From Dehalococcoidia bacterium (lineage in GTDB: Bacteria; Chloroflexota; Dehalococcoidia; SHYB01): a stretch of 64,000 nucleotides of DNA. The position numbers were made by a program, and so were the translations under genes. Of this stretch, positions 11,137 through 57,993 are shown piece after piece; the first letter of the stretch is position 1; each line of letters starts with the position of its first letter. The notes beneath the pieces are model-generated. The model had not been told where the DNA came from and did not search any database. It worked only from the letters and a program-made list of their open reading frames with translations. The DNA lies in assembly GCA_965207995.1 (NCBI GenBank), contig OZ242299.1, positions 788,863-852,862 on the forward strand, written 5' to 3'.

Positions 11137-11158
11137 CGGGCGGCGGCCTCGACCCACG

Positions 11159-25989: not shown

Positions 25990-28900
25990 CTACACCGTCA
26001 GACGGCGGTAAAGCTGCGGTAGCCGCTCCGGCAGCGTGTGGATGTCGGCGACGACCTCGTAGCCCATGTCGCCGCCCATCATCGTCTTCAGGTAGTCGTG
26101 GCCGGCCCGGTCGACGGTGAGGCAGAACGGTGTGATACCCAAGCGCCGCGCTTCGAGCAGCGCCATGCGCGTGTCGTGGACCGCGTACTCTTTCTCCACG
26201 CCCTCGCGGCTGTAGCCCCGGTCCTGCGGCCGGCCATCACTGAGCAGGAAGAGCACCTTGGTGCGAGCCTCGTGGTCGTCGAGCTTGCTGACCGCGTGCC
26301 GGATCGCCGGCCCCATGCGCGTGGCGTGCATCGGCGTGATCTTGTCGAGGCGGCGCTTCACGTTCTCACCGAAGGTTTCCGCGATGTCCTTGACCACGTA
26401 GAACTCGACGTTTTCGCGACCGTAGCCGGAGAAGCCGTAGATGCCGTACTGATCGCCGATGGCCTCCAGCGCCTTGATGAGCAGCACCGTGCTCTCTTTC
26501 TCGATGTCGATGATCCGCTTGTAGGTGCGGCGGCTCATCTCCTCGCGGCGGGTGCGGAGCCACGTCATGTAATCGCGCGGGTCGTCGGGGAAGTCCCACG
26601 AGTCGAACTGCCGGCGCGTCTCATCGACGGCCTCGGCGGTCGAGGCGCTCATGTCGAGCAGGAAGCTCACCGCGACATCGCGCTCGATTTTGTTGCGTCG
26701 CCAGTAGATCTTGTCCGTCGGCGTGTCGCCCGCGCGGGCTTGGATCATGGCCTCGACGACCAGGTCGAAGTCGTACTCCTCCCCGTCGGGAAGGTGCTTG
26801 ACCCTCCGCAGCTGCTCCGGCGCCAGCGACTCGAACTGCTTCTTGATGCGCGAGACGAGTCCATAGTGCGCCCGCAGCGTTCGCTCGAAGAAGTCGACAG
26901 TGCCCTCATCCATGCGCTTCTCGCGCACCGCGCACCAGCGGGGCTTGTAGTCCCCGGCCCGGAAGTCCCACTCGTCGTAGAGGAACGTCTCGGCTTCGCT
27001 CGCCAGCGGGGCGTCGTCGTCCTCGCTGTGCTGGAACTGCGTCCCCTGCTTCGACTTGGCCTGCTGTTGCCGCGCCGCCTCGTTGATCAGGTTGTCGACG
27101 AACTGGCTCGACGACTGCGGCAGGTCGCCCTCTTGCGCCTCCGCGACCTCGATCTCGGCCGACTTTTCGAGCAGTTGTCGCAAGTCTTCCTCGGAGAGCC
27201 CCGTGATCTCCATCGGGTTCTGCGCCTTCGAGCGCTCGTTCTTGAGGTTGTCGAACGCCTGCACGAGCTCGGGCTTGAACTCGCCGCGGAAGTCCACCAT
27301 CTGGGGACTCTTGTATTCCTGCTCGTCGCCGTCGGGCTGGCCCTCGCCCGAGGCGCCCTCCATGAGGTCTTGCAGCATTTGGTCGAGGTCGCCCTCGTCG
27401 CCGTCCTGGCCCATCTCGTCCATGCTGCGTTCTTCGCCGCTTTCGGGGTCGGCCTCGACGTTGGGCACCGTGCTCAGCAGGTCGTAGATGCGGATCGTCG
27501 CCTCCGCCGTGTCTTCGACCGTCCGTTCCTCGTGTTGCATCGTCCGCACCAGCACCGCCAGAGCGTCGAGATACTCCGAGATCTCGGCCGGCGTCTTGAC
27601 CGTCCCCGTCTCCTCCAGGCTCAGCCGGACCAGCACCTCCATCGCCGCCTCCCGCAGCGGCAAGCTGTCCGGTTCCGGGCGCGAGCGCAGCGACTCGCGC
27701 TGCACCCGGCTGTAGCTCTCGCCGATGCCGGCGTACTCGTACTTCACCCGGTGGTCGATACGCCCGTCTTCGACGAGCATGAAGATGTCCGAGGCCAACT
27801 TCCGGTCGCTGAACAGATCGAAGAACCGCTCCAGGTCGATCCGCGCGCCGCCGTCGCCGTCGCGCTTGCCCAGGACGGCCCGCTGCTCCTCGGCGGCGAA
27901 GACCGTGGACGGCTTGTCGAACTGGAAGCCGAAGCTCCCGAACTCCAGGTGTGCTACCTGGTGGGTCGCGATGACCTTGAACCACGCGAAGTTCTCGTCC
28001 TTCGTGGTGTACCGCTCCACAAACGTAGGGAGGAAGATGTTGTCGCCCTCCGTCGTGGCATAGTCAGAAGACGTCCAACCGATCCCCTTGCCCTGCAGCT
28101 CGTCGGTGGGCCGCAGCTCGACCCGTTGGCCCGCGAGCGCGCGGCAATACATGGTGAGGACTTCGTTCACCCGCGCCAGATCGAGCCCCGATGAGAGGTC
28201 TTCGATGGCCCGCTCCGCGCGGCCCGATTCGAGGCGGAAGAAGGCGAGGCCGCCGTCCTCGTTCTCGTCGAGGACGCGCAGCCCCGCATTGAACCAGCCC
28301 TCCAGCCGCTCGCCGCGCAGCCGGTTCATCACCACCGGCGCGTTCTTGACGAACTCTCCCACCGCGGCAGCCGAGTGGTCGGCGAGCCGGTCGGCCATGT
28401 CGAGGAGCGGACCGTGCCAGTCCGGGTGCACCTCGCCAAGAGCGGCGGAGGCTTCCACGAGGAACGTGATCGTGTTGCCCGCCCCCTGCTGCGAGAGCTG
28501 CTGCGCCAAATCGAGGAAGCGTCCGCGCTGGCGGGGCTCCACGCGCTCGATGATCTTCGGGCCGTTCTCGAAATACGGCTTGACGTCGCGCCAGTTCCCG
28601 CGCACCAGCACCGAGCCCAGGTTCAGGAAGCTGACACGGTCGCCGGGGTCGATCTTGGGAAAGACGCCGCTCGCCAGCGCGAGGCACTCGTTCGCCAGGT
28701 CGTACGACTTCTGGGCCAGGCTGTCGATAAAGTCGACGAGGTCTTCAAGTTCCTGGAGGGTGAGCGCGCCCAGCAGCCGCGGGCTCGCCTCGAAGTAGGT
28801 CGAGGCCAGGGAGCTCGACTTCCACGTTCCCTTGTAGAGCCGCTTGCCGACGCCGGCCCAGCGCCCCAACTCCGAGCCTCGCACGTAGGGAATCACCTCG

Positions 28901-29223
28901 GGCGTGGCGCGGAAGAAGGACGATGAGATGACCGGCGAGTCGGACGACAGCGCTCGGCCCCACCGGGCCCACTCCATCACCTCGGGGAATTCGAGCGCCT
29001 GCACCACGCGCGGTGTCGACTTGAAGTACTCGGTCGCCGCTTCCCAGGATCGGAAGGTGTGCTGCGCCAGCGAGACGCCCTCCGCCGCCCACGCTTGGTA
29101 GTCGTCGGCGCCGAGGTGCTTGCGGGCCGCTTCCTCGGCGCCGCGGAACTCGGTGACCACGGACACGGGGAATCGCTGCAGTTGCGATTCGAACGTGGCG
29201 GGGTCGTAAGCCTTATCCGTCAC
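25990..29223 (-). CDS. von Willebrand factor A domain protein, CbbO/NorD-like partner of CbbQ-type MoxR ATPase (1,077 aa)
   Basis: C-terminal VWA domain with MIDAS DxSxS (FLLDMSASTAE); N-terminal ~350 aa has degenerate helical repeats as in CbbO/NorD; long acidic low-complexity insert (…PESGEERSMDEMGQDGDEGDLDQMLQDLMEGASGEGQPDGDEQEY…); 76 nt downstream of the ATPase gene. Confidence 0.8.
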   Translation of the reverse strand: MTDKAYDPATFESQLQRFPVSVVTEFRGAEEAARKHLGADDYQAWAAEGVSLAQHTFRSWEAATEYFKSTPRVVQALEFPEVMEWARWGRALSSDSPVISSSFFRATPEVIPYVRGSELGRWAGVGKRLYKGTWKSSSLASTYFEASPRLLGALTLQELEDLVDFIDSLAQKSYDLANECLALASGVFPKIDPGDRVSFLNLGSVLVRGNWRDVKPYFENGPKIIERVEPRQRGRFLDLAQQLSQQGAGNTITFLVEASAALGEVHPDWHGPLLDMADRLADHSAAAVGEFVKNAPVVMNRLRGERLEGWFNAGLRVLDENEDGGLAFFRLESGRAERAIEDLSSGLDLARVNEVLTMYCRALAGQRVELRPTDELQGKGIGWTSSDYATTEGDNIFLPTFVERYTTKDENFAWFKVIATHQVAHLEFGSFGFQFDKPSTVFAAEEQRAVLGKRDGDGGARIDLERFFDLFSDRKLASDIFMLVEDGRIDHRVKYEYAGIGESYSRVQRESLRSRPEPDSLPLREAAMEVLVRLSLEETGTVKTPAEISEYLDALAVLVRTMQHEERTVEDTAEATIRIYDLLSTVPNVEADPESGEERSMDEMGQDGDEGDLDQMLQDLMEGASGEGQPDGDEQEYKSPQMVDFRGEFKPELVQAFDNLKNERSKAQNPMEITGLSEEDLRQLLEKSAEIEVAEAQEGDLPQSSSQFVDNLINEAARQQQAKSKQGTQFQHSEDDDAPLASEAETFLYDEWDFRAGDYKPRWCAVREKRMDEGTVDFFERTLRAHYGLVSRIKKQFESLAPEQLRRVKHLPDGEEYDFDLVVEAMIQARAGDTPTDKIYWRRNKIERDVAVSFLLDMSASTAEAVDETRRQFDSWDFPDDPRDYMTWLRTRREEMSRRTYKRIIDIEKESTVLLIKALEAIGDQYGIYGFSGYGRENVEFYVVKDIAETFGENVKRRLDKITPMHATRMGPAIRHAVSKLDDHEARTKVLFLLSDGRPQDRGYSREGVEKEYAVHDTRMALLEARRLGITPFCLTVDRAGHDYLKTMMGGDMGYEVVADIHTLPERLPQLYRRLTV

Positions 29224-29299: not shown

Positions 29300-30202
29300 C
29301 TAGGGGAAGATGCTCGAGACGACCTCTTCGATGCTGCGCTGCACCTCGTGGTCGTCGGTCAGCCCCCACACCACCGCCGCCTGACAGGCACGGCGAGCCG
29401 GAATGCCCCCCGCGATCAGCCGGCCCGCGTAGATGAGCAGGCGCGTGCTCACGCCTTCGTGCAGGCCGTGGTCCTTGAGGTGCCGCACCTTCTCACCCAG
29501 CTTGGCGAGATTCATCGCCACCTCGGGCCCCACGCCGGCCTCGTGCTCGATCACCTGCGTCTCGATTTCTCTGGGGGAGTAGTCGAACTCGAGCGAGATG
29601 AACCGCTGGCGCGTGCTGTGCTTCAAGTCCTTCAGCGCGCTCTGGTAGCCAGGGTTGTACGACATCACCAGCAGGAATTGGTCGCTGGCCTCCAGGATCT
29701 CGCCGCGCTTCTCCACGGGCAGCAGGCGCCGGTGGTCGGTCAGCGGGTGGATGAGCACCGTCGTGTCCTTCCGCGCCTCGACGATCTCGTCGAGGTAGCA
29801 GATGGCCCCGGCCTTCACCGCCCGGCTCAGCGGGCCGTCGATCCACTTCGTCTCCTGCCCCTCCAAGAGATAGCGGCCCACCAGGTCGCTGGATGTCAAG
29901 TCCTCGTGGCAGGCAATGGTGACCAGGGGCAGCCCCTTGCCCGTCCCATTCTTCGAGGCCGCCTTGCCGCGCTTCCTGCCTTTTACGAGGGGCCGGCCCA
30001 GCCGCCAAGACATGTACTCCACGAACCGCGTCTTGCCGCAGCCCGTCGGCCCCTTCAGCAGCACCGGGATCTTGGTCTTGTAGGCCGCCTCGAATACCTC
30101 CACTTCGTCGTTGACCGGCAGATAGAAGGGCTCCTCTTCGAGGAGGTACTCTTCGATGATGTAGTGGCGATAGAGCGTCTGCTCTCTGCCTGTTGTGGCC
30201 AT
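29300..30202 (-). CDS. CbbQ/NirQ/NorQ/GvpN-family MoxR AAA+ ATPase
   Basis: 300 aa; Walker [18 protein letters not shown], Walker B ICYLDEI, sensor/arginine-finger regions characteristic of the CbbQ subfamily; carries a ~20-aa Lys/Gly-rich insertion ([20 protein letters not shown]) after …WRLGRPL that is absent from the CbbQ consensus as I recall it. Confidence 0.85.
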
Positions 30203-34514: not shown

Positions 34515-37220
34515 GTGTTCGAATTTGTAGCCAACCGGCGGCTCGCCTTCCTGTTTACCGGGCTCGTCATCGCCGCGTGTGTGGTCGCGCTCGTCGCGCC
34601 GCCGCGGCTGCCATTCGGCCTCGAGTTCTCCAGCGGCACCTCGCTGACCGTCGAGTTTGAGCAGCCCGTCGCCCTTGAAGACGTCCGGGCGCGCCTCGCC
34701 GAGATCGGCCACGGCGACGCCTCGGTGCAAGCCCTGAACGAAACCACCTTCTTCATTCGCACCGAATTCGTCGAGGAAGACCTGCTGACCCGGCTCACCG
34801 ACGCCTTCGGTCCGCTGACGCCCACCGGCTTCGAACGGGCCACCGACATGGCGGAGACGGTGCGCTTCGTGGACACGGTCGCGGCGGAGGACGTGCTGGC
34901 GGCCTTCGGCGACGAACCCGCCGAGGGCAGCCGCGTCGAGGTCGCGGGCGCCGACCGCTTCCTTGTCGCCGCTCCCGGCGCAGGCGAAGACCAGCTGGCC
35001 GAGCTCGCCGCCGCATGGGAGTCGATCGGGACGGTGACCCGCACCTCGTTCGACGAGAACAGTTTCGCCGAAGTGATGACCTTCCCCGAGGACACCGTTC
35101 TCACCCAAGGGGAAATCGATACGATCGTCGCCGGCCTTGGCCTTGCCGAGAAGGTGACGGCCGTCATCGAGGACTCCACCACCCTCTTCGTTGCCGCACA
35201 GGCACCCGGACCGGACGACGTGACCGCCTTTGTCGACACGTTGACCGGCCGCTTCGGCGAGGCCGAGCGCACCCCAATCGACCTCGAGCAAGACCCGCTC
35301 TTTATTCTGGAATTCGCCGGCACGGTGACTCTTGACGAGATCCTTGAAGCGCTCGTCGTCTTGCCCGTCAACGCAGCCGCGGGCAGCGGCGTGACGGTTA
35401 CCCAGCAGGAGGGTGGCGACTTCTTGCTCCAAGGAGAGGAGCTGGCCGCCAACGCCGACATCGTCGCCGCCGACATCGAGAACGCCGTCGGATCGATCGA
35501 GTGGCGCGGCTTCGGTGGTGAGGATGACCTGCTCTTCTCGCTCGATCTCGGCACGCCGGTCATCACATCCTTCGACTTCGAAAACGAGGTCGGTGCCCAG
35601 GGGCGGGCCGAACTCACCTCGTCGCAGGTGAGCGAGAACCGCTTCGGCAGCGTTGATGCCGCCATCACCGAAGAGGAGCTGGCGGACCTCGTTGAAGGGC
35701 TGGAGCTCCGCTTCGGGCTTGCCGACGTCACCACGTTCGACCCGGCGGACGACCTCGCTCTGGCCCTCACGTTCCCTGAAGAGGCATCTGTCGATCTCGA
35801 CACGCTGCGGGCCGAGATCAGCCTGCTCGGCCTCGACGAGGATGTTGCCGCGATAGAGACCGAAGGGAGCTTCGTCCTGCTGGGCGAAGCCTTCTCTGAA
35901 GACACGCGGCAGCAGCTCCTCGACGACCTCACAACCCGTTTCGGCGAGTTCGCGCAGGAGCCCGTCGCGGTGAATCCGGGGGCGGCCTTCATCGTCGACT
36001 TCGGCGCCGGCTACGGTCCCAGCGACATCGCGGAGGCCGTCGACGGCGCGAGCGACGGCGCGGCTTCGAGCGTTTTTCGCCCCTCAGCGGGCTCCTACGC
36101 GGTCTTCGGCCATGATGCGGCGGACCTCAACGAGAGTATCGTGGCCGCGGTCGAGGAGGCGTTGGGGCGCGCGGAGACCGGTCCGATCGACCCGGCCGAG
36201 GAGGGCTTGTTCACCGTCCGGCTCACCGACGCCGAGCAGTCCGTCCAAGCGGTGCGGAACCTGCTCATCATTCAGCAGGACGGGCCGGACGAGGACGGTC
36301 TGGTCGAGTTCTTCATCGGGGGCAACCGGTTGAGCTCTGAGCAGCAGGGGTTGATTCTCTCCACCCTGCAGAGCGAGTTCGGCGAGATCGTCTCCACTCC
36401 CTTTAGCCACACCACCCACGTGGCGCAGACGCTCGTTTTCGAGCGCCCCGTCTCTCCCGAGGCGGTGGTGAACGAGCTCGACGACGTGGGGTACGTCGAC
36501 CTGACGGCCGAGGCACGGGGCAACGGCATCTTCATCCGGGGCAGCCGCGCCGAGTCCGACGGACGCAGCGTGCTGCTCACCGCGCTGGGGAGCCTCGCGC
36601 CCATCAACACCGAGGCGGTCGACTTCACCTCGGTCGATGCCGAGATCGCCAAGCGCAGCATCCTGAATACCTTCTGGGCCGTGCTGGCGGGTACCGTGGG
36701 CATCCTGCTCTACATCTGGTGGGCCTTCCGGCGCATCCCGCGCTCCTACCGCTACGGCTTCGCCGCCATCGTGGGGCTGAGCCACGACGTGTTGATCGTG
36801 CTCGGGGTCTTCGGGCTGCTGGCGAAGTTCACCGGGGTGGAAGTCAACTCCCTCATGATCGTGGGCGTCCTGGCGGTGATCGGCTACAGCGTGAACAACA
36901 CCATCGTGGTCTTCGACCGCATCCGCGAGAACGTGATGAAGAGTCCGGGCCGCCCGTTCGAGACCTCGGTCAACGTCAGCCTGAACGAGACGCTGACGCG
37001 GAATCTCAACACCACGCTGACCACCGCCGCCGCCATCCTCGCCGTCCTCCTCTTCGGCGGCGAGACAATCCGCGACTTCATGGGCGTCCTGCTCACCGGC
37101 GTGATCGCGGGCGCGTACAGCTCCCTGATGCTCGCGCCGAATATCCTCGTGGCCGCGGAGAAGGGCGAGCTGCCCAAGCTCCGCATCCCCTTCCGCTCGC
37201 GCCGCACCGCAACCGCCTGA
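34515..37220 (+). CDS. secF: protein translocase subunit SecF with greatly expanded acidic periplasmic region (901 aa)
   Basis: TM1 (LAFLFTGLVIAACVVALVA) then canonical SecF head (FGLEFSSGTSL…), then ~550 aa of Asp/Glu-rich sequence with a recurring L..L...FGE motif at about 150-aa spacing, then the canonical SecF 5-TM C-terminus (…YGFAAIVGLSHDVLIVLGVFG…SVNNTIVVFDRIREN…). Confidence 0.8.
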   Translation: MFEFVANRRLAFLFTGLVIAACVVALVAPPRLPFGLEFSSGTSLTVEFEQPVALEDVRARLAEIGHGDASVQALNETTFFIRTEFVEEDLLTRLTDAFGPLTPTGFERATDMAETVRFVDTVAAEDVLAAFGDEPAEGSRVEVAGADRFLVAAPGAGEDQLAELAAAWESIGTVTRTSFDENSFAEVMTFPEDTVLTQGEIDTIVAGLGLAEKVTAVIEDSTTLFVAAQAPGPDDVTAFVDTLTGRFGEAERTPIDLEQDPLFILEFAGTVTLDEILEALVVLPVNAAAGSGVTVTQQEGGDFLLQGEELAANADIVAADIENAVGSIEWRGFGGEDDLLFSLDLGTPVITSFDFENEVGAQGRAELTSSQVSENRFGSVDAAITEEELADLVEGLELRFGLADVTTFDPADDLALALTFPEEASVDLDTLRAEISLLGLDEDVAAIETEGSFVLLGEAFSEDTRQQLLDDLTTRFGEFAQEPVAVNPGAAFIVDFGAGYGPSDIAEAVDGASDGAASSVFRPSAGSYAVFGHDAADLNESIVAAVEEALGRAETGPIDPAEEGLFTVRLTDAEQSVQAVRNLLIIQQDGPDEDGLVEFFIGGNRLSSEQQGLILSTLQSEFGEIVSTPFSHTTHVAQTLVFERPVSPEAVVNELDDVGYVDLTAEARGNGIFIRGSRAESDGRSVLLTALGSLAPINTEAVDFTSVDAEIAKRSILNTFWAVLAGTVGILLYIWWAFRRIPRSYRYGFAAIVGLSHDVLIVLGVFGLLAKFTGVEVNSLMIVGVLAVIGYSVNNTIVVFDRIRENVMKSPGRPFETSVNVSLNETLTRNLNTTLTTAAAILAVLLFGGETIRDFMGVLLTGVIAGAYSSLMLAPNILVAAEKGELPKLRIPFRSRRTATA

Positions 37221-39754: not shown

Positions 39755-41629
39755 CTAGAGGCCGTACTTGGTCAGGCGGGCGATGGCGCCGCGCGCGGCG
39801 TCGTACTGCTCCGTGCTCACCGGCACGTAGTCCACGTCGGCGACCAACGCCGGCGCGTTCTCGATGTAGAACCGGACGAACTCACGGACGTGCGCCTTCT
39901 CCACCAGCGAGTCCACCCGCACGTAGATGAACAGCGGCCTCGTGAGCGAATAGTCGCCCGAGAGGATCGTCTCCTCGTTGGGAACGACGCCGTCCACGCC
40001 GAGCACCTTCAGCTTGTCCGCGTTCTCCGCGTAGTAGGCGTACCCGAAGTAGCCCTTCGCGCCCTTCTCGCCTGAGATGCCCTGGACCAGTACGTTGTCG
40101 TCCGAGGACGCGGTGTAGTCCGAGCGGGAGGCCCCCTCCTCGCCGACCACCTCGTCGGTGAAGAAGTCGAACGTGCCCGAGTCCACGTCGGGGGCAAAGA
40201 TGGTCAGCTCCTCGTCTGGAAACGAGGCGCGCACCTGGTTCCAGTTGTTCACCGTCGAGCCCGGCTCGTAGATCATCTTCAGCTCTTCGATGGTGAGATC
40301 GTCCACGAAGTCGTTGTCCGGGTTTACCACGACGGAAAGGCCGTCCCAGCCGACCAGCATCTCGACGAACTCGATGCCGTTCGCGGCGCAGAGTTCAAGC
40401 TCGGAGCTCTTGATCGGCCGCGACGCGTTCGAAATGTCCGTCTCCCCGGCGCAGAAGCGCTTGAAGCCCCCGCCCGTGCCCGATACGCCGACCTGCACCC
40501 GAACGCGCCCGTTCACCGAGCGGAACTCCTCGGCCACCGCCTCGGAGATCGGGAAGACCGTGCTCGACCCATCGATGCCCACGTCGCCAGAGAGGCCGCT
40601 CTCGATGGCGGGCACGCCAAGGACGCGGGCGATGGCGCCGCGGGCGGCGTCGTATTGCTCCGTGCTCACCGGGACGTAGTCCACATCGGCGACAAGCTCA
40701 GGCGCGTTCGCGATGTAGAACTTCACGAACTCCGCCACGTGCTGCTTGTCCCGCAAGGAGTCCTCTCGCACGTAGAGGAAGAGTGGCCTCGTGAGCGGGT
40801 AATCGCCCGAGAGGATCGTCTCTTCGTTGGGAACGACGCCGTCCACGCCCAGCACCTTCAGCTTGTCCGCGTTCTCCGCGTAGTAGGCGTAACCGAAGTA
40901 GCCCTTCGCGCCCTTCTCGCCGGAGATGCCCTGGACCAGCACGTTGTCGTCCGACGACGCGGTGTAGTCCGAGCGGGAGGCCCCCTCCTCGCCGACCACC
41001 TCATCGGTGAAGAAGTCGAACGTGCCCGAGTCCACGTCGGGGGCGAAGATCGTCAGCTCTTCGTCGGGGAACGAGGCGCGCACCTGGTTCCAGTTGTTTA
41101 CCGTCGAGCCGGGCTCGTATATCGCCTTCAGCTCTTCGATGGTCAGCTCGTCCACGAAGTCGTTATCCGGGTTCACCACGACCGAAAGGCCGTCCCAGCC
41201 AACCAGCATCTCGACGAACCCGATGCCGTTGGCGGCGCAGATCTCAAGCTCGGAGCTCTTGATAGCCCGCGACGCATTGGAGATATCCGTCTCGCCCGCG
41301 CAGAAACGCTTGAATCCGCCGCCCGTGCCAGACACCCCCACCTGCACGCGGACCTTCCCGGCCACCGAGCGGAACTCCTCGGCCACCGCCTCGGAGATGG
41401 GGAAGACTGTGCTCGACCCGTCGATGCCCACGTCGCCCGAGAGGCTGCTCAGATCTTCCTCGGGCTCCAAGGCCCCGGTTGTGGACGACGTCCCCTGCGG
41501 GTTGGGTGTTGCTGAAGGGTCGTCGCTGCCGCAGGCGGCGACCACCAGAGCAACCACGGCCAACAGCGCTGCGAGCATCGCCGCCTTCCTACGCAAGAGC
41601 GTAAGAGCCGGGGATCTGCGTTCCTTCAT
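39755..41629 (-). CDS. pstS: lipoprotein consisting of two fused, near-identical PstS-like phosphate-binding (periplasmic binding protein) domains
   Basis: Lipobox LVVAAC after [27 protein letters not shown]. Two consecutive ~280-aa halves ([25 protein letters not shown]…[17 protein letters not shown]) about 95% identical at protein level and about 95% at DNA level (period about 840 bp). Confidence 0.75.
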
Positions 41630-41691
41630 TCCGTACCCCTTTGGCGCTTCGCGCCACCTTCGCATTGACCAAGCCATGGTTGGCCCGCCGC

Positions 41692-41741
41692 GTTAAGCCC
41701 CAACTAACGGAGGGTTAACGGGGGATTAACTCTCTGTTAAC
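41692..41741. promoter_or_regulatory. Pho-box-like array: five direct repeats of GTTAAC-like hexamers with exact 11-bp phasing in the pstS/ruvB divergent intergenic region
   Basis: GTTAAG(41692) ACTAAC(41703) GTTAAC(41714) ATTAAC(41725) GTTAAC(41736), read directly; 11-nt direct-repeat phasing is the hallmark of PhoP/PhoB-type binding sites upstream of pst genes. Confidence 0.4.
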
Positions 41742-41852
41742 GCGTGCGACAGGCTGTCCTTGACACTGCGAGAAGCGCACTCCTAGCATGGCTCAAGGAC
41801 GTTGCCGTTCGGCAGACCGCCCGCCCTCCGGCTCCCCGAACGGCCCAGACGC

Positions 41853-43358: not shown

Positions 43359-44399
43359 CTACGCCCCCGGCGCCAGCGCCTCGATAGCGTCCTCCACGGA
43401 TGCGCCGGCCTCGCCCGTGCGGATGGGTGCGATGATGGGCAGGTCGAGCCCGATGGCGCGGAGATCGTCGATGCCGGCGCGGCACTCGTCGGCGGTCCCC
43501 ACAATAACCATGGCGCGGATCAGCCGGTCGGTGACGGCGCGGGCGGCCCCCTGCTCGTCGCCGCGGTCGAGGGCGGCGGTGATGGCGTGCGTCTCCTCCT
43601 CGAAGCCCAGCTTCGCGAAATAGCTAGCGTAGAACGGCAGCCGCATGCGGCCCGCGAGGATCTGCCGGAGCACGCGCGTGGCCCGCTCGTAGTCGTCGGT
43701 GACCGCGACCCGCACGTAGCACGCCACGTCGCACGCCCCCGGCTCGCGGCCCGCTGCCGCCTCGCCCTCGCGCACCAGACCCACGGCGTCCTCGACGTAC
43801 CCCTTGGGAGAGAAGTTGAGCAGGACGCCGTCGGCGATCTCGCCGGCCAGCCGCACCATCTTCGGCTTGAGCGCGGCGAGGTAGACCGGCAGCGGTTGCT
43901 GCACGGGCCGCACGTCGATCTGGGCGCCGCTGGTGCTAAAGACCTTGCCTTCGTAGGTGACGCGTTCCCCGGCAAGCAGCCGCCGCACGATCTCGATGGT
44001 CTCCCGCCCCCGTGTGATCGGACGGTTGAAGGGAACGCCGTGACCGCCCTCCGTCATCGGCTCGTGGCCCACGCCGAGGCCGAGGACGAACCGCCCGCCG
44101 GTCAACTCGTCGATGGTCGCGGCGGACATGGCCGTCATCGTCGGCGTGCGCGTGTAGGTGGAGAGGATGCCAGTAGCGAGGCGGACCCGCTCGGTGTGGA
44201 GTCCGAGGGCGGTGAGGAAGGTCACCGCGTCGCGCCCGAAGCCTTCGGGCAGCCAGACCGAGTCGTAGCCTAGCCGGTCGGCGAGCGCGACGACCTCCCG
44301 GACCTCGTCGAACCCGTACCGGCGCAGCCTGTCGGCCGTGCCCGGGTCTCGCAGGGCAAAGGCGGCGTCGGCTTCGACGCGGAGCCCGATGCGGCTCAT
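43359..44399 (-). CDS. LLM-class F420-dependent oxidoreductase
   Basis: 346 aa luciferase-like TIM barrel (…YDSVWLPEGFGRDA…GRFVLGLGVGH…). Confidence 0.8.
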   Translation of the reverse strand: MSRIGLRVEADAAFALRDPGTADRLRRYGFDEVREVVALADRLGYDSVWLPEGFGRDAVTFLTALGLHTERVRLATGILSTYTRTPTMTAMSAATIDELTGGRFVLGLGVGHEPMTEGGHGVPFNRPITRGRETIEIVRRLLAGERVTYEGKVFSTSGAQIDVRPVQQPLPVYLAALKPKMVRLAGEIADGVLLNFSPKGYVEDAVGLVREGEAAAGREPGACDVACYVRVAVTDDYERATRVLRQILAGRMRLPFYASYFAKLGFEEETHAITAALDRGDEQGAARAVTDRLIRAMVIVGTADECRAGIDDLRAIGLDLPIIAPIRTGEAGASVEDAIEALAPGA

Positions 44400-45337
44400 G
44401 ACGCGTTCACCACGTCGATCACCTGCTCCTTGAAGCGGGCGGCGTTGTCGGCGTACTCAGCGCACGACTCCGCGGGCATCATGCAAGTGAAAACGCTGAA
44501 GCCCATCTCCCGGAGGGCCATGATCCGCTCGATGACGGGGCCGTGGTCGAAGTCGGGCGGGTAGGTGGAGTCGAGCCCGCCGATGCCGCCGGTGCACAGC
44601 GTCAGCGGCGCGGTGCGCCCCACGCGCTCGGCGTGCTCGCGGGCAAGGTCGAGCCGCTCGCGGAAATCGTCGAGCGTGGCCAGCGGCGGCGTCAGCGTGC
44701 GGGGGAGTGTGCCCGAGACCGGAATCCAGCCGTCGCACCGCTCGATGGCGCGGCGCATCGCCTTCCGGCTGTTGCCGCCGACCCAGATCGGCGGGTGGGG
44801 CTTCTGCACCGGCGTCGGCTTCATCACGCAATTGCGGGCGGTGAAGTGGCGGCCGTCGAAGTCGAAGATCTCGCCCGTCCACGCCGCCTTCATCGCGTCG
44901 ATGGCCTCGTCGGAGAGCTCGTTGAGCTCCGCCCGGTCAACCCCCAGCGCGTCGAACTCCGGCTTCAGGAAGCCGGCGCCGACGCCGATGATCAGCCGAC
45001 CGTTGGAGATGGCGTCGACGGTCACCGCCGACTTCGCGGTGATGAACGGGTTCTGGTACGGCAGGATGAGGACGTGCGTCTGGACCCGGAGGCGGGTGGT
45101 CGCCGCGGCGGCCACGGCGAGCGCGGCCCACGGGTCGAGGGGGTGGATGCCCAAGTTCGCCGTCCAGTTCGCCTCCGGTATCCAGTGATGCGTCAGCTCG
45201 ACGGCATCGAAGCCGTTCCTCTCGGCGGCGCGCGCCATCGACGAGATTCCCTCGGCGCTGGTGAACTCAGGGCCAAGGTCCCACCGGTGGGTGAGGAGCC
45301 GCAGGTGGAACCTGGCGGGGCCGGCGGTGTCGAACAT
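44396..45337 (-). CDS. LLM-class F420-dependent oxidoreductase (second, divergent paralog)
   Basis: 313 aa; luciferase-like motifs (…GFDAVELTHHW…GRLIIGVGAGF…); 4-nt overlap (ATGA) with the downstream LLM gene. Confidence 0.8.
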   Translation of the reverse strand: MFDTAGPARFHLRLLTHRWDLGPEFTSAEGISSMARAAERNGFDAVELTHHWIPEANWTANLGIHPLDPWAALAVAAAATTRLRVQTHVLILPYQNPFITAKSAVTVDAISNGRLIIGVGAGFLKPEFDALGVDRAELNELSDEAIDAMKAAWTGEIFDFDGRHFTARNCVMKPTPVQKPHPPIWVGGNSRKAMRRAIERCDGWIPVSGTLPRTLTPPLATLDDFRERLDLAREHAERVGRTAPLTLCTGGIGGLDSTYPPDFDHGPVIERIMALREMGFSVFTCMMPAESCAEYADNAARFKEQVIDVVNAS

Positions 45338-49212: not shown

Positions 49213-51147
49213 ATGAGGCGAATCAAGTCTCGCTTACTCCTGTTGGCCAGCGCTCTCATCGTGACGGCGCTTGTCGCCGCCGCCTGCGGCGGAGATGATC
49301 CAACGGCGGCCCCGCCCGCCCCGGCGCCCACGAATACGCCGGTGCCAGCGACCACGGCTCCCGAGCCAACCGCGGCCCCCGAAGCGACGGCCATGCCAGA
49401 GGCGACGGCTATGCCCGAGGCGACCGCCATGCCCGAGCCGACGGCCATGCCCGAAGCAACGGCTATGCCCGAGGCGACCGCCATGCCTGAAGCAACGGCC
49501 ATGCCCGAGGCAACCGCGGCGCCCGAGCCGACGGCGGCTCCGCAGCCGACGTCCACGCCGAGGCCGACGCCGACGCCGACGCCGATTCCGGAGCCCGTCT
49601 TCGGCGGCGTCCCCGACCTGCCCAACGCACAGTATGGCGGGACGTTGATCCGGACCAACTCCGCGGAAGGCCCGACGTGGGACCCGCTGAAGGAACGCAC
49701 GCAGAACACCCAAGACCCCATTTCCCCGCTGTTCGATCAGCTCCTGATCAGTCATCCCAACGAGCAGAGTCAACTCGTACCGCAGATCGCGGACAACTGG
49801 GAGATTTCCGCCGACAACCTGACCTACACGTTCAGCATCCGCGACGACATCACCTTCCACAACGGCAGCGCCCTCAACGCTGCAGATGTCGCTTGGACGT
49901 TCGAATTACTGCGCAGCCCTCCGGAGGGCTACAGTCCCATCAACCGGGGTCTCGTCGGCTCCATCGCCAGGATCGATACCCCCGACGACCGCACTGTCGT
50001 CCTTAACTTGAGCGAGCCCGACAACGCCTTCCTCTACGCAATGGGAGGGCATGGACGCATGCACATCCTCGACCAAGAGACCGTCGAGGGGGCAGGCGGC
50101 ATCGCATCGCTCAGGGAGTGGCCGCCGATAGGCAGCGGCCCCTTCATGGGCGAGCGGGGTGGACACGATCAAGGCGTCGGCGTCGAGGTCGTGCGCAACC
50201 CCAACTACTACGTCGAGGGACGGCCGTTCGTTGACAGCATGCAGTGGTTCTTCATCCCCGACAGAGGGGCGCAGGAAGCGGCATTCCTAGCCGGCCAGCT
50301 CAGCATCCTGACCGTGAATACCGGCGCAGGGATCGACGAGATCAATTCCCGGCTCGCCGGCAGAGCGTTCATCCAAGAGGTAGCGGACACCGTCTTCTGG
50401 GATCTGAACCTCGACTTCCACAGCGAAGACTCGCCCTTCACCGACATTAAAGTGCGCGAGGCCGTTTCATTGGCCCTCAATAGGGCCGAGGCGATTGAGT
50501 TGATACGGCAGGGACGCGGCGTCTTGGGCGGCGTCATCATCCCCGGCACCGGCTGGGAAATCCCCACGTCCGAACTACTGCAGTACGCCGGCTACACGGA
50601 GACCGTTGACGAAGGCGTGGCCAAAGCGAAGGCACTGCTCGCCGAGGCCGGTTACCCGGACGGCTTCGAGTCCACCATCTGGACCCGGAACCATCCCGCC
50701 TACCTGACGCCCACCGTCGCCATGCAGGAGCAGCTCGAACGTATCGGCATCCGCGCCAACATCGTGCAGGCCGAGCAGGCGGTCTTCTTCGCCGAGCAGC
50801 GGAACCTCGACGTCTGGGACATGCAGAGCGGCGGCCACCGCTACACCGGGACCGACCCGAACTTCATGATCCGCGAGTTCTACCTCACCGACGCGACACG
50901 GAACCTCAACTTCTTCACCGACCCCGAGGTGGACCGCCTCTTCTCAGAGCAAAACCTGGAGGCCGACCCCGGTAAGCGCCGTGAGCTCGTCAACCGGATC
51001 GAGCACATCGTTGTGGGCTTCTACGGAAACCCGGTGCTCTACTACAACAAGGCGAACTACGCCATGTACAACTACGTCAAGAACCAGGCGTACCACGCCT
51101 CCTACGGGTCCAACCAGGACTTCAGGGACGTCTGGATCGAACGGTAG
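49213..51147 (+). CDS. ABC transporter substrate-binding lipoprotein, family 5 (peptide/nickel/opine type), with long Pro/Ala/Thr/Glu-rich linker
   Basis: Signal peptide with lipobox LVAAAC; SBP_bac_5 body from about aa 140; linker aa 51-110 is ten hexapeptide units (EPTAAP/EATAMP). Confidence 0.8.
   Translation: MRRIKSRLLLLASALIVTALVAAACGGDDPTAAPPAPAPTNTPVPATTAPEPTAAPEATAMPEATAMPEATAMPEPTAMPEATAMPEATAMPEATAMPEATAAPEPTAAPQPTSTPRPTPTPTPIPEPVFGGVPDLPNAQYGGTLIRTNSAEGPTWDPLKERTQNTQDPISPLFDQLLISHPNEQSQLVPQIADNWEISADNLTYTFSIRDDITFHNGSALNAADVAWTFELLRSPPEGYSPINRGLVGSIARIDTPDDRTVVLNLSEPDNAFLYAMGGHGRMHILDQETVEGAGGIASLREWPPIGSGPFMGERGGHDQGVGVEVVRNPNYYVEGRPFVDSMQWFFIPDRGAQEAAFLAGQLSILTVNTGAGIDEINSRLAGRAFIQEVADTVFWDLNLDFHSEDSPFTDIKVREAVSLALNRAEAIELIRQGRGVLGGVIIPGTGWEIPTSELLQYAGYTETVDEGVAKAKALLAEAGYPDGFESTIWTRNHPAYLTPTVAMQEQLERIGIRANIVQAEQAVFFAEQRNLDVWDMQSGGHRYTGTDPNFMIREFYLTDATRNLNFFTDPEVDRLFSEQNLEADPGKRRELVNRIEHIVVGFYGNPVLYYNKANYAMYNYVKNQAYHASYGSNQDFRDVWIER
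49363..49542 (+). repeat. in-frame 18-bp tandem repeat (about 10 units) encoding (E/P)ATA(M/A)P linker
   Basis: GAGGCGACGGCTATGCCC-type units read directly. Confidence 0.7.
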
Positions 51148-51242
51148 CGGCGGATAAGCGTAAGCCATTGAAGAGGGGCGGGCCGTGGCCCGCCCCTCTT
51201 GCGCTTCAGCGAGAGGGCGAATAGCCCAGTCAGTACGAAGCG

Positions 51243-52202
51243 ATGCAGCAGTACGTAGTCAGACGGCTCCTGGCGATCATCCCGCTCATGATCGGGGTGT
51301 CCATTGTCATCTTCTTCGTCATGCGAGTGCTTCCGGGGGACGTGGCGGCGGTGATTGCTTCAAGGGGCAGTCCCGACACCGCGCCCACGGAGCAGGAGAT
51401 AGAGGCGGTCCGCCTGGCTCTCAATCTTGACCGCAACATCTTCCTTCAGTACCTCGACTGGGTGTGGGACGCCCTCCGCTTCGACTTCGGCGACTCCTAC
51501 TTCACCGGCAACTCCGTACGCGATGACATCATCCGAAAGCTCCCCGTGACCATCGAGCTCGGCCTGCTGTCGATCCTTATCGCTTGGCTCATTGCCCTCC
51601 CCGTCGGCATCATATCGGCGGTTAAGCAGGACTCCGTCTGGGACTACGCGGGGAGAATCTTCAGTATCTCCGGTCTCGCCGTGCCCACGTTCTGGGCCGG
51701 CATTCTGACCATTCTGATCTTGTCCCGCTATTTCAGTTGGTTGCCCCCCTTGGGATACCGGGAGTTCTTCGAGGACCCCCGGGGCAACCTGCTCCAGCTT
51801 ATCTTCCCCGCGCTGGCACTCGGCTGGACGCTCTCCGCGACCGCGGCCCGGATGACCCGCTCCTCGATGCTCGAAGTGTTGCGGGAAGACTATATCCGGA
51901 CGGCGCGCTCGAAGGGCCTCAAGGAAGCAGTGGTCGTTATGCGGCACGCGTTGCGCAACGCGCTGATCCCCGTCATCACCCTCGCCGGCTTCATGATTTC
52001 TCTGGTTATCGGCGGCACGGTCATCATCGAGAGCATCTTCAGCCTGCCCGGAATGGGCCTCTACCTCGTCCAAGCCATCGGAATACGTGACTTCCCCATC
52101 ATCCAAGGCGTCGTGCTCCTCATCGCTTTCGCCTTCGCAATCGTGAACCTAGTCGTCGATCTCGCCTACGGCTTCATCGATCCTCGCATCCGCCAGTCCT
52201 GA
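51243..52202 (+). CDS. ABC transporter permease (DppB/OppB-like)
   Basis: 319 aa; 6 TM helices, EAA-like loop (…RTARSKGLKEAVVVMRHALRNA…). Confidence 0.85.
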   Translation: MQQYVVRRLLAIIPLMIGVSIVIFFVMRVLPGDVAAVIASRGSPDTAPTEQEIEAVRLALNLDRNIFLQYLDWVWDALRFDFGDSYFTGNSVRDDIIRKLPVTIELGLLSILIAWLIALPVGIISAVKQDSVWDYAGRIFSISGLAVPTFWAGILTILILSRYFSWLPPLGYREFFEDPRGNLLQLIFPALALGWTLSATAARMTRSSMLEVLREDYIRTARSKGLKEAVVVMRHALRNALIPVITLAGFMISLVIGGTVIIESIFSLPGMGLYLVQAIGIRDFPIIQGVVLLIAFAFAIVNLVVDLAYGFIDPRIRQS

Positions 52203-52212
52203 TACCAGCACC

Positions 52213-53148
52213 ATGGCCTCGAACGAAGTAGCGCTCGACCCAGACGCCGGCAAAGGGCCGGTCCAGTACTTGGCCAACGCGGCCGTCGCTCTCGGGCAGT
52301 TCTTCAAGCAGAAGCCCCTCGGCGCATTCGGCGCGCTCGTTCTATTGGTCATGTTCGTCCTCGCGATCTTCGCCGGTGTTATCAGTCAGTACGACCCCAC
52401 CGAGTTCAACAGGTACGTAGACGAGAGCGGCACAGATAGGAACGCCACATTCCAGCCCCCGGACGGCACGTTCTGGCTGGGCACCGACGAGTTTGGCCGC
52501 GACATTTTCAGCCGCATCGCCCACGGCTCCCGCATCTCCCTCCGCGTCGGATTCATATCGGTCTTGCTCGGTACGGCGGGGGGCGCGCTCTTCGGCATGA
52601 TCAGCGGCTATGTCGGGGGGCGCTTCGACATGGTCTCCCAGCGGGTCATGGACGCGCTGATGGCGCTGCCCGGCCTCATCCTCGCCCTGATGGTCATCGC
52701 CGCATTGGGCAGGGGGGAGTTTCCCGTCATCGTGGCCATCGCCCTCAACATCGGCCCCAACGCCAACCGGATCCTGCGGGCGCAGTGCCTGACGATCAAG
52801 GAGCGGCCCTACGTCGACGCCGCGCGCGCGTTGGGCGCCTCGAACGTTCGGATCATCCTGGGGCACATCCTGCCGAACTCGCTGGCGCCGTTCCTGATCA
52901 TCGCGACGGCGGGCTTGGGCGCGGCCATCCTCATCGAAGCCTCGCTGAGCTTCCTCGGCTTCGGTGTGCCACAGCCGGCGCCGTCGTGGGGAGGGATGCT
53001 CACCGGAAACGCGCAGCAGTTCGCGATCGTCGCGCCGTGGCTCGCCATTGCCCCCGGCGTCGCCATCAGCCTCGCCGTCTTCGCCTTCAACGTCCTGGGC
53101 GACGCCCTCCGCGACGTCTGGGACCCGAGGCTCCGGGGCGCCTCCTAG
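52213..53148 (+). CDS. ABC transporter permease (DppC/OppC-like)
   Basis: 311 aa; N-terminal DppC-type extension and EAA loop (…YVDAARALGASNVRIILGHILPNS…). No ATP-binding subunit gene follows. Confidence 0.85.
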   Translation: MASNEVALDPDAGKGPVQYLANAAVALGQFFKQKPLGAFGALVLLVMFVLAIFAGVISQYDPTEFNRYVDESGTDRNATFQPPDGTFWLGTDEFGRDIFSRIAHGSRISLRVGFISVLLGTAGGALFGMISGYVGGRFDMVSQRVMDALMALPGLILALMVIAALGRGEFPVIVAIALNIGPNANRILRAQCLTIKERPYVDAARALGASNVRIILGHILPNSLAPFLIIATAGLGAAILIEASLSFLGFGVPQPAPSWGGMLTGNAQQFAIVAPWLAIAPGVAISLAVFAFNVLGDALRDVWDPRLRGAS

Positions 53149-55320: not shown

Positions 55321-56427
55321 CTAGTCCATGTGGTAGAGCCGCATCGCGTTGCCCGCGAGAATCTGCTGCTTCTCGTCGGCGGGAATGCCCTCGAACGCGC
55401 GGTCGAGCACCGCCCATGTATTCGGCCAATCGGTAGCGGTGTGGGGATAGTCGCTCGACCACAGGATCTTGTCGAGGCCGATCGCGTGCCGAAGCTGCAG
55501 CGCCGACTGATCAGTGATGTAGGTGTAGAAGAGGTTGTGCTCGAAATAGTGGCTTGGCGGGTGCTTCGTCTTGACGTACGGAATCTGCAAGTCGCGCAGG
55601 TGACGCTTCTCCATCTGCTCCACGACGTAGGGCACCCAGCCGCAATCAACCTCCGCGAAGAGGAACTTCAGCTTGGGGAAGCGGTCGAACACCTCGGCAT
55701 AGATCAGCTCGTTCATCCGGTCCGGCACGCTGGTGAACCGGAAGGAGTTCTGCGCTCGTGTCGTGCTGTGATGGCCGACGGGTTCAGTCACGAGCGCGAC
55801 ATGGATGGCGATTGGGATGTCGGCCTCCTGCGCCACCGCCCAGAAGGGGTCGTCCGCGGGGGAGACGGGGTCTCCACCCGAGGGATAGCCGCCGATGACG
55901 ATCCCTCGGATTCCCGGCAGCGAGAGGGCGCGGTGGAACTCCGCGATCGCCTCCTCGGCCCCGCAACAGGGGATCATCGCCAGGCCGAAGAAACGGTCCG
56001 GGGCATGGCTGCAATACTCGGACAGCCAATCGTTATAGGCGCGGATCAGGGCGGTCTGGAGTTCGGCGTCCCCGCGGTTCCACCAGATGCCGTTCGAGAG
56101 CCGTGGCGTGGGGAACATCACCTCCGCGTCGACGCCGTCGATGTCGATCTCCCTGATCCGCTCCGCCGGGTCAAAGCCGCCCCGCCGCACGTTCGCCCAC
56201 TTGACCCACGGCGATCGCTTGTCGGCGGGATCGGTGGCGCACTGGTTGAGCCCGAAGTGGACCGGGTCGGCGGCGCCTTCGATCACCCAGGCGTCGCCCT
56301 TTTCGAACCGCTCCATGCGAGGGGCGCGGTCGGCGAACTTCGCGGGCACGCGGTCCCGCCACAGTTCCGGCGGCTCGTTCACGTGGGAGTCGCCGGAAAT
56401 CAGCTTGTACTCGATCCGCTTTGCCAT
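55321..56427 (-). CDS. amidohydrolase_2 family protein (LigW/ACMSD-like decarboxylase/hydrolase), paralog 1
   Basis: 368 aa; ISGDSHVNEPP N-terminal metal motif, internal …IAIHV… and C-terminal SSDYPHT. Confidence 0.8.
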   Translation of the reverse strand: MAKRIEYKLISGDSHVNEPPELWRDRVPAKFADRAPRMERFEKGDAWVIEGAADPVHFGLNQCATDPADKRSPWVKWANVRRGGFDPAERIREIDIDGVDAEVMFPTPRLSNGIWWNRGDAELQTALIRAYNDWLSEYCSHAPDRFFGLAMIPCCGAEEAIAEFHRALSLPGIRGIVIGGYPSGGDPVSPADDPFWAVAQEADIPIAIHVALVTEPVGHHSTTRAQNSFRFTSVPDRMNELIYAEVFDRFPKLKFLFAEVDCGWVPYVVEQMEKRHLRDLQIPYVKTKHPPSHYFEHNLFYTYITDQSALQLRHAIGLDKILWSSDYPHTATDWPNTWAVLDRAFEGIPADEKQQILAGNAMRLYHMD

Positions 56428-56886: not shown

Positions 56887-57993
56887 CTAGCCGATGTGGT
56901 AGAGGCGCATCGCGTTGCCCGCGAGTATCTGGTGCTTCTCCTCAGCAGGGACGCCCTCGAACGCGCGGTCGATCGCGGTCCAGGAGTTCGGCCAGTCGGT
57001 CGATGTGTGGGCGTAGTCGCTCGACCACAGGATCTTGTCGAGGCCGATCGCGCCCCGGTTCTGTACCGCGTAGTTGTCGGTGATATAGGTGTAGAAGATG
57101 TTGTGCTCGGTGTAGTAGCTCGGAAGGTGTTTGGTCTTGACGTAGGGGATCTGCAGGTCCCGCACGTGGTGCTTGTCCATCTGTTCGATGACGTAGGGCA
57201 CCCACCCGCAATCGACCTCCGCGAAGATGAACTTGAGGCCGGGGAAGCGGTCGAACACCTCGGCGTAGACCAGCTCGTTGATCCTCCCCGGCACGCTGGT
57301 GAACCGGAAGGTCGCCTGGGGGATGGTCGTGCTGTGGTGACCGACGGGCTCGGTCGCGAGGGAGACGTGGATGGCGATGGGAATATCGGCTTCCTGCGCC
57401 GCTGCCCAGAGCGGGTCGTCCGCTGGAGAGACGTGGTACTCACCCGAGGGATAGCCGCCGATCACGGCACCACGGATCCCGGGCAGGGCGAGGGCGCGGT
57501 GGAACTCCGCGACCGCCTCCTCGACTCCACAGCAGGGCATCATCGCCAGACCGAAGAGGCGGTCCGGCGCATGGGTGCAATACTCTGAGAGCCAGTCGTT
57601 GTACGCCCGGATCAGGGAGGTCTGAAACTCCGCGTCCTCGCGGTTCCACCAGATGCCGTTCGAGAGGCGTGGGGTAGGATACAGCAGCTCCCCATCGACG
57701 CCGTCGATGTCGATCTCCTTGATCCGTTCCGCCGGATCGAAGCCGCCGCGCCGCACGTTCTCCCACTTGATCCACCGTGACCGCTTCTCGATTGGATCCG
57801 AGGCGCATTGATTGAGCCCGAAGTGAACCGGGTCGATGGCGCCCTCGATGACCCAGGCGTCGCCCTCTTCGAACCGCTGCATGCGCGGGGCGCGGTCGGC
57901 GAACTTCGCGGCCACTCGGTCCCGCCACAGTTCCGGCGGCTCGTTCACGTGGGAGTCTCCGGAGATGAGCTTGTATTCGGTCCGTTTCGTCAT
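56887..57993 (-). CDS. amidohydrolase_2 family protein, paralog 2 (about 80% identical to 55321..56427)
   Basis: Start at MTKRTEYKLISGDSHVNEPP (cat 57991-57993); same 368-aa length and motifs as paralog 1. Confidence 0.8.
   Translation of the reverse strand: MTKRTEYKLISGDSHVNEPPELWRDRVAAKFADRAPRMQRFEEGDAWVIEGAIDPVHFGLNQCASDPIEKRSRWIKWENVRRGGFDPAERIKEIDIDGVDGELLYPTPRLSNGIWWNREDAEFQTSLIRAYNDWLSEYCTHAPDRLFGLAMMPCCGVEEAVAEFHRALALPGIRGAVIGGYPSGEYHVSPADDPLWAAAQEADIPIAIHVSLATEPVGHHSTTIPQATFRFTSVPGRINELVYAEVFDRFPGLKFIFAEVDCGWVPYVIEQMDKHHVRDLQIPYVKTKHLPSYYTEHNIFYTYITDNYAVQNRGAIGLDKILWSSDYAHTSTDWPNSWTAIDRAFEGVPAEEKHQILAGNAMRLYHIG

Follow-up and report, generated by a model that had tools for sequence, protein, structure and literature searches.

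How does a single lipoprotein come to carry two nearly identical phosphate-binding domains, and how long has it carried them? This question is raised by a pstS gene in a 64-kb stretch of DNA from a Dehalococcoidia bacterium (contig OZ242299.1), which is referred to here as the window. An earlier note on this DNA described two near-identical PstS domains fused in one lipoprotein and read them as a very recent tandem duplication, with an assembly artefact as the other possibility. We determined that the duplication was in-frame, took in the mature domain and happened before the present Dehalococcoidia species clade diverged; it is old, not recent. The explanation that we consider likely is that the gene encodes a genuine, old two-domain S-type phosphate receptor that has been homogenised by gene conversion, is Pho-regulated and bivalent, and serves a Pst transporter encoded elsewhere. 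In what follows the first and second PstS domains are abbreviated d1 and d2, and L and P numbers denote retrieved loci and proteins that are compared with the copy in the window.

Self-comparison of the open reading frame (ORF) gives one strong offset only, 849 nt (283 codons), and this repeat is far beyond chance. The earlier note had put the period at about 840 bp, which the measurement corrects, and the identity of the halves at about 95% for both protein and DNA. The protein value is close, as 256 of 273 residues (93.8%) are identical over the 273-codon core, and the amino-acid substitutions that had been quoted are present in the repeat alignment; the DNA value was too high, the copies being identical at 735 of 819 positions (89.7%) and differing at 84. 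Tandem Repeats Finder, whose longest period of 500 lies below 849, picked up nothing but a 21-nt pair within domain 1, which is due to chance. The halves differ in 73 codons (56 synonymous and 17 non-synonymous changes), 60 of the 84 base differences fall at third positions, and the Nei-Gojobori values between the halves are 0.041 for dN, 0.378 for dS and 0.11 for dN/dS. The 56:17 synonymous bias together with the low dN and the high dS indicates that both halves have long been under purifying selection.

The fusion itself is well supported. Profile searches match the product to TIGR02136, the PstS family, with 582.4 bits (cutoff 206.6) and to PF12849 with 263.5 bits (cutoff 27), each in two stretches, and the ORF stops after domain 2 with no transmembrane segment other than the signal peptide. 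By pattern match this signal is of the lipoprotein type: it opens with MKERRS, its n-region is positively charged, and its hydrophobic core leads to a V-A-A-C lipobox that is followed by GSDD. In 48 two-domain homologues the Cys of the lipobox never varies, and the Ala before it hardly does.

Both halves carry the motifs GSST, SGTGGG, NASR, WDG, DSGT and TRP, which line up with residues of the ligand site and the triad in solved S-type PstS proteins, and the ligand residues are identical between the halves. Neither domain of any of the 48 two-domain proteins departs from SST, SGxGGG, ASR, DGL, DSGTFD and RP. In SST, the Thr takes the place of Ser13 of C. perfringens PBP-1, the equivalent of Thr17 of SphX (PMC13614923). 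The residue roles described for S-type proteins are a Ser in place of the D-type low-barrier-hydrogen-bond Asp, which here is the Ser of NASR, an Asp-Arg-Thr/Ser triad and Thr45-type ligand residues; a lower affinity has been reported for them, and a micromolar one for an S-type PstS (PMC13614923). Judged by these motifs, each half is a full S-type (SphX-like) PstS member, and both binding modules are apparently functional, each being predicted to bind phosphate. The AlphaFold model contains two confident type II binding-protein folds (Venus flytrap) with a pLDDT of ~80-95, a disordered N-terminus of 40 residues, a pLDDT of 61 at the linker and a pTM of 0.51, which suggests two rigid modules that are joined flexibly and are independent of each other. 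The best match in the PDB is the single-domain PstS 4JWO (target-normalised TM 0.90, rmsd 1.7 A), and among PDB chains only GlnPQ SBD1-SBD2 (6H30) and transferrin (8BRC) align over both halves of the model. Sequence and fold searches found no two-domain PstS among PDB structures.

The earlier note had proposed looking for the fusion in related genomes, and the two-domain gene was found in at least eight independent assemblies. In the protein database, two-domain proteins of 607-623 aa with 87-98% identity come from eight independent assemblies with contigs of up to 1.6 Mb, and in a species-level genome collection the same gene is present in five Dehalococcoidia metagenome-assembled genomes (MAGs; L001-L005), which include a chromosome-level record. 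The period is exactly 283 aa in L001-L003, and their linker has the same pattern, VLGxPxIExG; L003 comes from OZ253453.1, a complete genome. L081, the closest relative, shares the gene order of the window, with genes for RuvB, two-domain PstS, a thioesterase, a class IV aminotransferase, a cation-efflux protein, SecF and SecD. Its repeat DNA is 93-94% identical to that of the window, and that of L002 and L003 is ~88% identical.

The age of the duplication was read from quartets made up of both domains of two genomes. Informative sites were sorted into class O, in which d1 resembles d1 and d2 resembles d2 across genomes, and class C, in which d1 resembles d2 within a genome and the genomes differ. 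Between the window and L081 there are 31 O sites and 4 C sites, and the duplication is therefore older than the split between these two lineages. L005 was left out of the quartets because an indel or frame disruption in it sent both window copies to one place. This locus (OZ220083.1, ~10001-11883) holds a two-domain copy 95% identical to that of the window with the frame disrupted in domain 1; its longest ORF is 459 aa, the database protein (P0024) is 414 aa, and the copy would be either a pseudogene or the product of a long-read indel error.

Comparison with the more distant relatives L002 and L003 gives a different picture for most of the repeat. At repeat positions 1-676 there are 23-29 C sites and 1 O site (29 C and 1 O against L003), whereas positions 677-760 hold 1-2 C sites and 8 O sites (2 C and 8 O against L003). 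This clustering of the site classes is significant (Fisher p ~5e-6, runs-test p 1e-5 to 4e-5), and a concerted mosaic is found across six genome pairs (Fisher p 3e-6 to 4e-4, runs-test p down to 1e-5). Between the window and L001, shorter tracts of O and C sites are interleaved. The simplest history is one duplication followed by lineage-specific gene conversion over most of the repeat, with a C-terminal surface helix escaping conversion.

All informative sites in this helix patch are of class O. Its dN between d1 and d2 is 0.23-0.32 (0.226 at the lowest), and that between the window and L001 at the same position is 0.016. Residues V227, V231, R237, R241 and E245 of d2 and residues A237, K241 and A245 of d1 are constant in four genomes, and in L003 the patch holds 10 of the 13 amino-acid differences between d1 and d2. 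The helix could have escaped because position-specific surfaces are selected for, or divergence of the patch could itself block recombination. The patch was also considered as a marker of d1 and d2 for the whole family and was rejected, since differences within a protein are only mildly enriched in it (ratio 0.36) and peak at the ends of the domains. The helix-patch signal is specific to the clade of the window gene.

Multi-domain PstS proteins are found well beyond this clade. The best 120 protein matches all have two or three PstS domains. The earlier note had called a double PstS unusual, which is correct in that such proteins are a minority overall (in a 50%-identity representative library, long multi-stretch proteins make up about 14 of the 150 best clusters) but not for the Dehalococcoidia, in which the state is common (15 of the 78 species-level loci in which an ORF could be called). 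The domains are 77-100% identical within a protein and ~55% identical between lineages; the periods range over 280-340 aa, the junctions differ by lineage, and the repeated unit takes in a varying length of the tether that precedes the domain. In a neighbour-joining tree of the domains, built without bootstrap and including the single-domain PstS proteins of the retrieved genomes, 22 self-contained multi-domain clades are interspersed, and 13 of these have purely single-domain sister groups.

Individual cases point the same way. The domains of L006 are 98.6% identical to each other, 96.0% identical to L021, a single-domain protein, and 92.4% identical to both L022 and L024. Those of P0030 are 100% identical to each other and 87.5% identical to single-domain L059, and d2 of P0097 has 95.7% identity with L057, which has one domain only. 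The copying of one unit has turned two-domain forms into three-domain forms (P0010 vs P0078). In the Anaerolineae, the domains of L017 are 98% identical in protein and 94% in DNA, and the two domains of Ornatilinea apprima (L018), a cultured isolate, are 100% identical; in short-read assemblies the copy number of 100% identical repeats is uncertain and may be under-called. Within the Chloroflexota, then, the multi-domain form of PstS is a minority state that has recurred, being gained and lost, and it extends from the Dehalococcoidia to at least some Anaerolineae. Since repeated doubling, tripling and reduction with lineage-specific junctions is what would be expected of it, we infer unequal recombination between the ~850-nt direct repeats as the probable mechanism. 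Two further observations concern the same family. The repeats of L014, L018 and L082 are 99.9-100% identical in DNA over 750 nt and would be either very fresh duplications or completely homogenised ones. A match in L016, a Bacillota MAG (10001-11836), is two domain lengths long with an ORF of only 328 aa. It probably represents a pair of neighbouring single-domain pstS genes, in which case a duplication of this kind would have left the copies unfused.

These results bear on two other accounts of the repeat. In the first, the tandem would be sub-functionalised, with one module docking and the other capturing or storing phosphate, or with the modules differing in ligand preference (phosphate vs arsenate or phosphite). 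A helix that keeps position-specific residues amid homogenisation agrees with such a division of labour, as does the geometry of the protein, in which membrane-proximal and distal positions are not equivalent, and SBD1 and SBD2 of GlnPQ provide a precedent (PMC8025302). The ligand-contacting and triad residues, however, are identical in the two halves and invariant family-wide, many lineages have modules that are 98-100% identical, which implies that bivalency works without differentiation, and the patch is not especially enriched for d1/d2 differences in the family as a whole. We therefore consider sub-functionalisation unlikely, although it is the strongest of the alternatives.

The second account does without conversion, and holds that the lineage of the window and L001 and that of L002 and L003 duplicated independently, or collapsed and re-duplicated, the helix differences having arisen in parallel. 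Independent duplication is clearly frequent in the PstS family, and concerted-type sites prevail over most of the repeat in the deep comparisons. It would, however, have to have produced the same 283-aa period and linker pattern in all four genomes, and many parallel changes would be needed to give eight or nine clustered sites and five helix positions the same d1 and d2 states in each of them. Additionally, the sites that separate the window from L001 form short interleaved tracts and not one block. Independent duplication is accordingly improbable, and one duplication with later conversion is preferred.

How the gene is regulated may be read from the region upstream of it. The intergenic region between the divergent pstS and ruvB genes contains five hexamers with an exact 11-nt period, which in the direction of the gene read GTTAAC agaga GTTAAT ccccc GTTAAC cctcc GTTAGT tgggg CTTAAC. 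The three-unit pattern has no other occurrence in the window, and 0.00 are expected in shuffled sequence. In six relatives (L001-L005 and L081) the hexamers are kept and the spacers are variable. Arrays of this kind occur 21 times in 1.5 Mb of retrieved loci, and 20 of the 21 lie no more than 300 nt upstream of a pstS. These 20 include arrays 5' of the single-domain pstS genes that head pstCAB-phoU operons (L022-L024, L026-L029, L031 and L032) and of two-domain L006. Periodic arrays of direct repeats with an 11-nt spacing are the known layout of the Pho box in E. coli, Bacillus and Streptomyces. Because it has this layout and matches the arrays upstream of pstSCAB operons, the array is probably the Dehalococcoidia Pho box and the orphan pstS probably a member of the Pho regulon. 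Scans for sigma-70 promoters and terminators turned up no convincing site for pstS itself and no terminator. The only good promoter match in the region is a sigma-70-like site that faces ruvB and lies ~20 nt beyond the array, and a compact control region may be common to both of these divergent genes.

The window gene sits between ruvB and a thioesterase gene and is unlinked to pstCAB-phoU. The earlier note had reported no adjacent pstC, pstA or pstB in the window, and this was borne out, as tblastn gave no match to any of these genes or to phoU at E<=1e-5 in the 64 kb. Homologues show how such receptors are used elsewhere. The three-domain protein P0001 (L083) is encoded in the order phoB-phoR-pstS(x3)-pstC-pstA-pstB-phoU, and the two-domain genes of L006, L011, L015, L017 and L018 lie directly upstream of pstC-pstA, and also of pstB except in L011. 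In these operon-type relatives pstC and pstA are separate genes.

In the preferred explanation, phosphate limitation would switch the gene on through a PhoB/PhoP-type regulator that acts at the GTTAAC array. The product would be a lipid-anchored receptor on a disordered tether in which each module binds one phosphate independently, and the modules would alternate in docking on a PstCA-PstB transporter encoded elsewhere. The tandem domains of GlnPQ act independently and compete for docking (PMC8025302). Two sites per anchor would double the capture capacity and place a second loaded module beside the translocator, as in GlnPQ, and bivalency could make up for the lower affinity that S-type PstS proteins are reported to have.

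The orphan position of the gene also allows it to be read as not feeding a transporter at all; its product would then buffer or store phosphate at the cell surface or provide the input to a sensor. The absence of pstCAB linkage in the clade of the window gene and the lower affinity of S-type PstS (PMC13614923) are in line with this. On the other side, homologous multi-domain genes lead canonical pstSCAB-phoU operons, the upstream array is of the same type as at those operons, and extra unlinked copies of pstS that serve one Pst transporter are common, an example being the several pstS loci of one MAG (L033 and L035). We regard a role of this kind as having little probability, and the preferred function remains that of a receptor for a Pst transporter.

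Several points weigh against the preferred explanation. No pstCAB-phoU genes were found in the 64-kb window or within 10 kb of the gene in L001-L005 and L081, and the partner transporter is assumed. The assignment of the Pho box comes from comparative position and conservation alone, and the hexamer is palindromic, which leaves the orientation of binding undefined. The benefit of bivalency is argued by analogy with GlnPQ, whose domains are permease-fused and differ in specificity, unlike those of the window PstS. Divergence of the helix patch alone might block conversion without any selection, conversion is indistinguishable from collapse and re-duplication outside the clade of the window gene, and the domain tree lacks bootstrap values.

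The two readings with which the earlier note began survive least well. If the gene were the product of a very recent in-frame tandem duplication, the halves would be alike for want of time to diverge; the high protein identity of the halves is in keeping with this, and fresh cases do exist in other lineages (repeat DNA 100% identical in L014 and L018 and 99.9% in L082). This reading is already contradicted by the dS of 0.38 between the halves, by the 31 positional-orthology sites against 4 concerted sites in the comparison with L081, and by relatives with 6-12% divergence in repeat DNA that have the same two-domain gene, with the same period, linker junction and synteny and the same d1- and d2-specific helix residues, and it is very improbable. 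A repeat-induced assembly artefact at a truly single-domain locus has a negligible probability, for although repeats of 850 nt can be mishandled by short-read assemblers, assemblers collapse repeats and do not invent diverged copies, the 84 differences are skewed 56:17 to synonymous changes in an intact frame, and the architecture recurs in many independent assemblies (at least eight), including megabase and chromosome-level contigs and a cultured isolate. What did stand was the other half of the suggestion, a genuine in-frame tandem duplication that gave two binding domains, for which the intact frame and the same architecture in independent assemblies speak.

The coordinates of the gene, its parts and other features of the window are collected in the table. 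The gene probably starts at M17, since the sequence beginning MKE is kept in L001-L003 and the sequence 5' of it is not; this start corresponds to the end coordinate given in the earlier note. M1 of the mechanical ORF was dropped as a start, as it lies only 10 nt off the last unit of the candidate Pho box and the residues before M17 are unconserved in the relatives. Gene callers start the gene in relatives at the position of M34 (41578).

Table. Features of the pstS locus and of the surrounding window (positions within the 64-kb stretch).
Feature	Position	Strand	Basis or remark
PstS ORF	39755-41677	minus	640 aa; mechanical ORF with start M1
pstS gene, two-domain S-type phosphate-binding lipoprotein	39755..41629	-	624 aa from probable start M17
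Lipoprotein signal peptide	41531..41629	-	lipobox V-A-A-C, Cys49 of the 640-aa ORF; read from sequence
Low-complexity tether, lipid anchor to domain 1	41444..41530	-	composition from sequence; in the 607-aa form, pLDDT <50 over residues 1-40
Repeat copy A = PstS domain 1, 273-codon core	40625..41443	-	self-comparison and model; 263 bits to PstS 4JWO
Helix patch, domain 1	40685..40768	-	repeat nt 676-759; aa 304-327 of the 640-aa ORF; model helix 279-298; all informative sites O
Inter-domain linker, 10 aa	40595..40624	-	pattern VLGxPxIExG in relatives; pLDDT dip to 61
Repeat copy B = PstS domain 2, 273-codon core	39776..40594	-	self-comparison; 262 bits to 4JWO
Helix patch, domain 2	39836..39919	-	same helix patch; aa 587-610 of the 640-aa ORF; model helix 562-581
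Candidate Pho box	41687..41741	-	five hexamers, exact 11-nt period; divergent pstS-ruvB intergenic region
Sigma-70-like promoter match	41760-41789	+	TTGACA, 18 nt, TAGCAT; 10/12; faces ruvB
Calx-beta ORF pair	17617-25750	-	1968 aa with 10 Calx-beta stretches; 805 aa with 4 more
VWA-domain protein	25990-29223	-	1077 aa
CbbQ/NorQ-type AAA ATPase	29300-30202	-	
SecF homologue	34515-37220	+	901 aa
Luciferase-like monooxygenase paralogues (three)	1205-2209, 43359-44399, 44396-45337		
Amidohydro_2 paralogues (three)	8808-9869, 55321-56427, 56887-58065		
Family-5 solute-binding protein and two permease-size ORFs	49213-53148	+	binding protein of 644 aa

The rest of the window holds genes of several other kinds. 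The two ORFs with Calx-beta stretches overlap by ~190 nt and may be one frameshifted gene or two genes; the genes for the VWA-domain protein and the AAA ATPase come next, and together these genes look like a large cell-surface or adhesin-like cluster. In the SecF homologue, SecD_SecF_C matches the C-terminus only, and no Pfam family matches the ~600 aa by which the protein is extended at its N-terminus, a stretch that is acidic; the SecF of L081 is equally long. In addition to the monooxygenase and Amidohydro_2 paralogues, the window holds acyl-CoA dehydrogenase, thiolase-like and CoA-ligase genes and has a GC content of 67%, a gene content that we take to be SAR202-like within the Dehalococcoidia. 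One of the two permease-size ORFs behind the family-5 solute-binding protein matches a permease of L081, and an AMP-binding enzyme is encoded next. No ABC ATPase gene follows these ORFs, and none was found in the window by tblastn with PstB at E<=1e-5.

Few binding proteins have been studied as closely as PstS, which serves as a standard phosphate-stress marker and has always been handled as a single-domain protein. Public annotations of the proteins considered here read only 'PstS family phosphate ABC transporter substrate-binding protein', and no description of a tandem, fused or double PstS was found in the literature searched. The gene itself is ordinary phosphate-uptake equipment. The recurrent amplification, the concerted evolution and the exempt helix are less ordinary and are undescribed in that literature, and they look like a convergent and ongoing amplification of domains inside one bacterial gene with both sites intact. 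In practical terms, multi-domain pstS genes are easily mis-assembled in metagenomes and easily given a wrong copy number there, and they inflate pstS read counts where these are used as an indicator of phosphate stress. The candidate Pho box (GTTAAC, 11-nt spacing) would provide a handle on the unstudied phosphate regulon of the Dehalococcoidia.

A broader proposal can be put forward only tentatively, and we think it rather doubtful as a whole: multivalency of a free, lipid-anchored binding protein would be a selected trait in the monoderm Chloroflexota. The modules would have been multiplied to two or three and kept identical by concerted evolution, the copy number would be tuned by unequal recombination as a fast and reversible response to phosphate scarcity, and the conversion-resistant helix would encode the position of a module in the chain. 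If this is true, the principle of several binding sites per translocator would reach from permease-fused domains, as in GlnPQ, to soluble or anchored receptors. The natural one-, two- and three-module proteins, some of them more than 95% identical to one another, would form a test series for whether tethered sites speed ABC import.

Comparison with known systems places the window protein among several that it resembles in part. With the S-type PstS proteins (TIGR02136; 4JWO, 4Q8R/4GD5, 1TWY, 9L8J and SphX) it shares the S-type Ser and triad positions, each half being a full member of the family; the solved or described members are all single-domain, whereas here two modules, and three in some relatives, are joined in one lipoprotein. 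Like the canonical PstSCAB-PhoU system under PhoB/PhoR control, it belongs to a group in which multi-domain homologues occupy the pstS position and an 11-nt hexamer array lies upstream. It differs from that system in that the window gene is unlinked and the receptor would be bivalent, in contrast to the single-domain PstS chain listed for the E. coli complex 9K3X.

A structural parallel is GlnPQ of Lactococcus lactis (6H30), which also has two type II domains in series on a flexible linker (14 aa there and ~10 here) and with which the window protein likely shares the logic of placing more sites near the translocator. The domains of GlnPQ are permease-fused paralogues of old standing that have diverged and have unlike specificities and affinities, whereas the window tandem is free and lipid-anchored, with identical ligand residues and halves that are ~94% alike through gene conversion; the window protein as a whole does not belong to the GlnPQ type. 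Transferrin (8BRC) is likewise a tandem-duplicated binding-protein fold and aligns over both halves, but its lobes have long diverged and are not homogenised. As in other cases of concerted evolution of tandem repeats, the copies are more alike within than between genomes, mosaic tracts are present, and copies are gained and lost; unlike the usual case, the units are whole domains with a period of 283 aa inside one bacterial ORF, and one helix is exempt.

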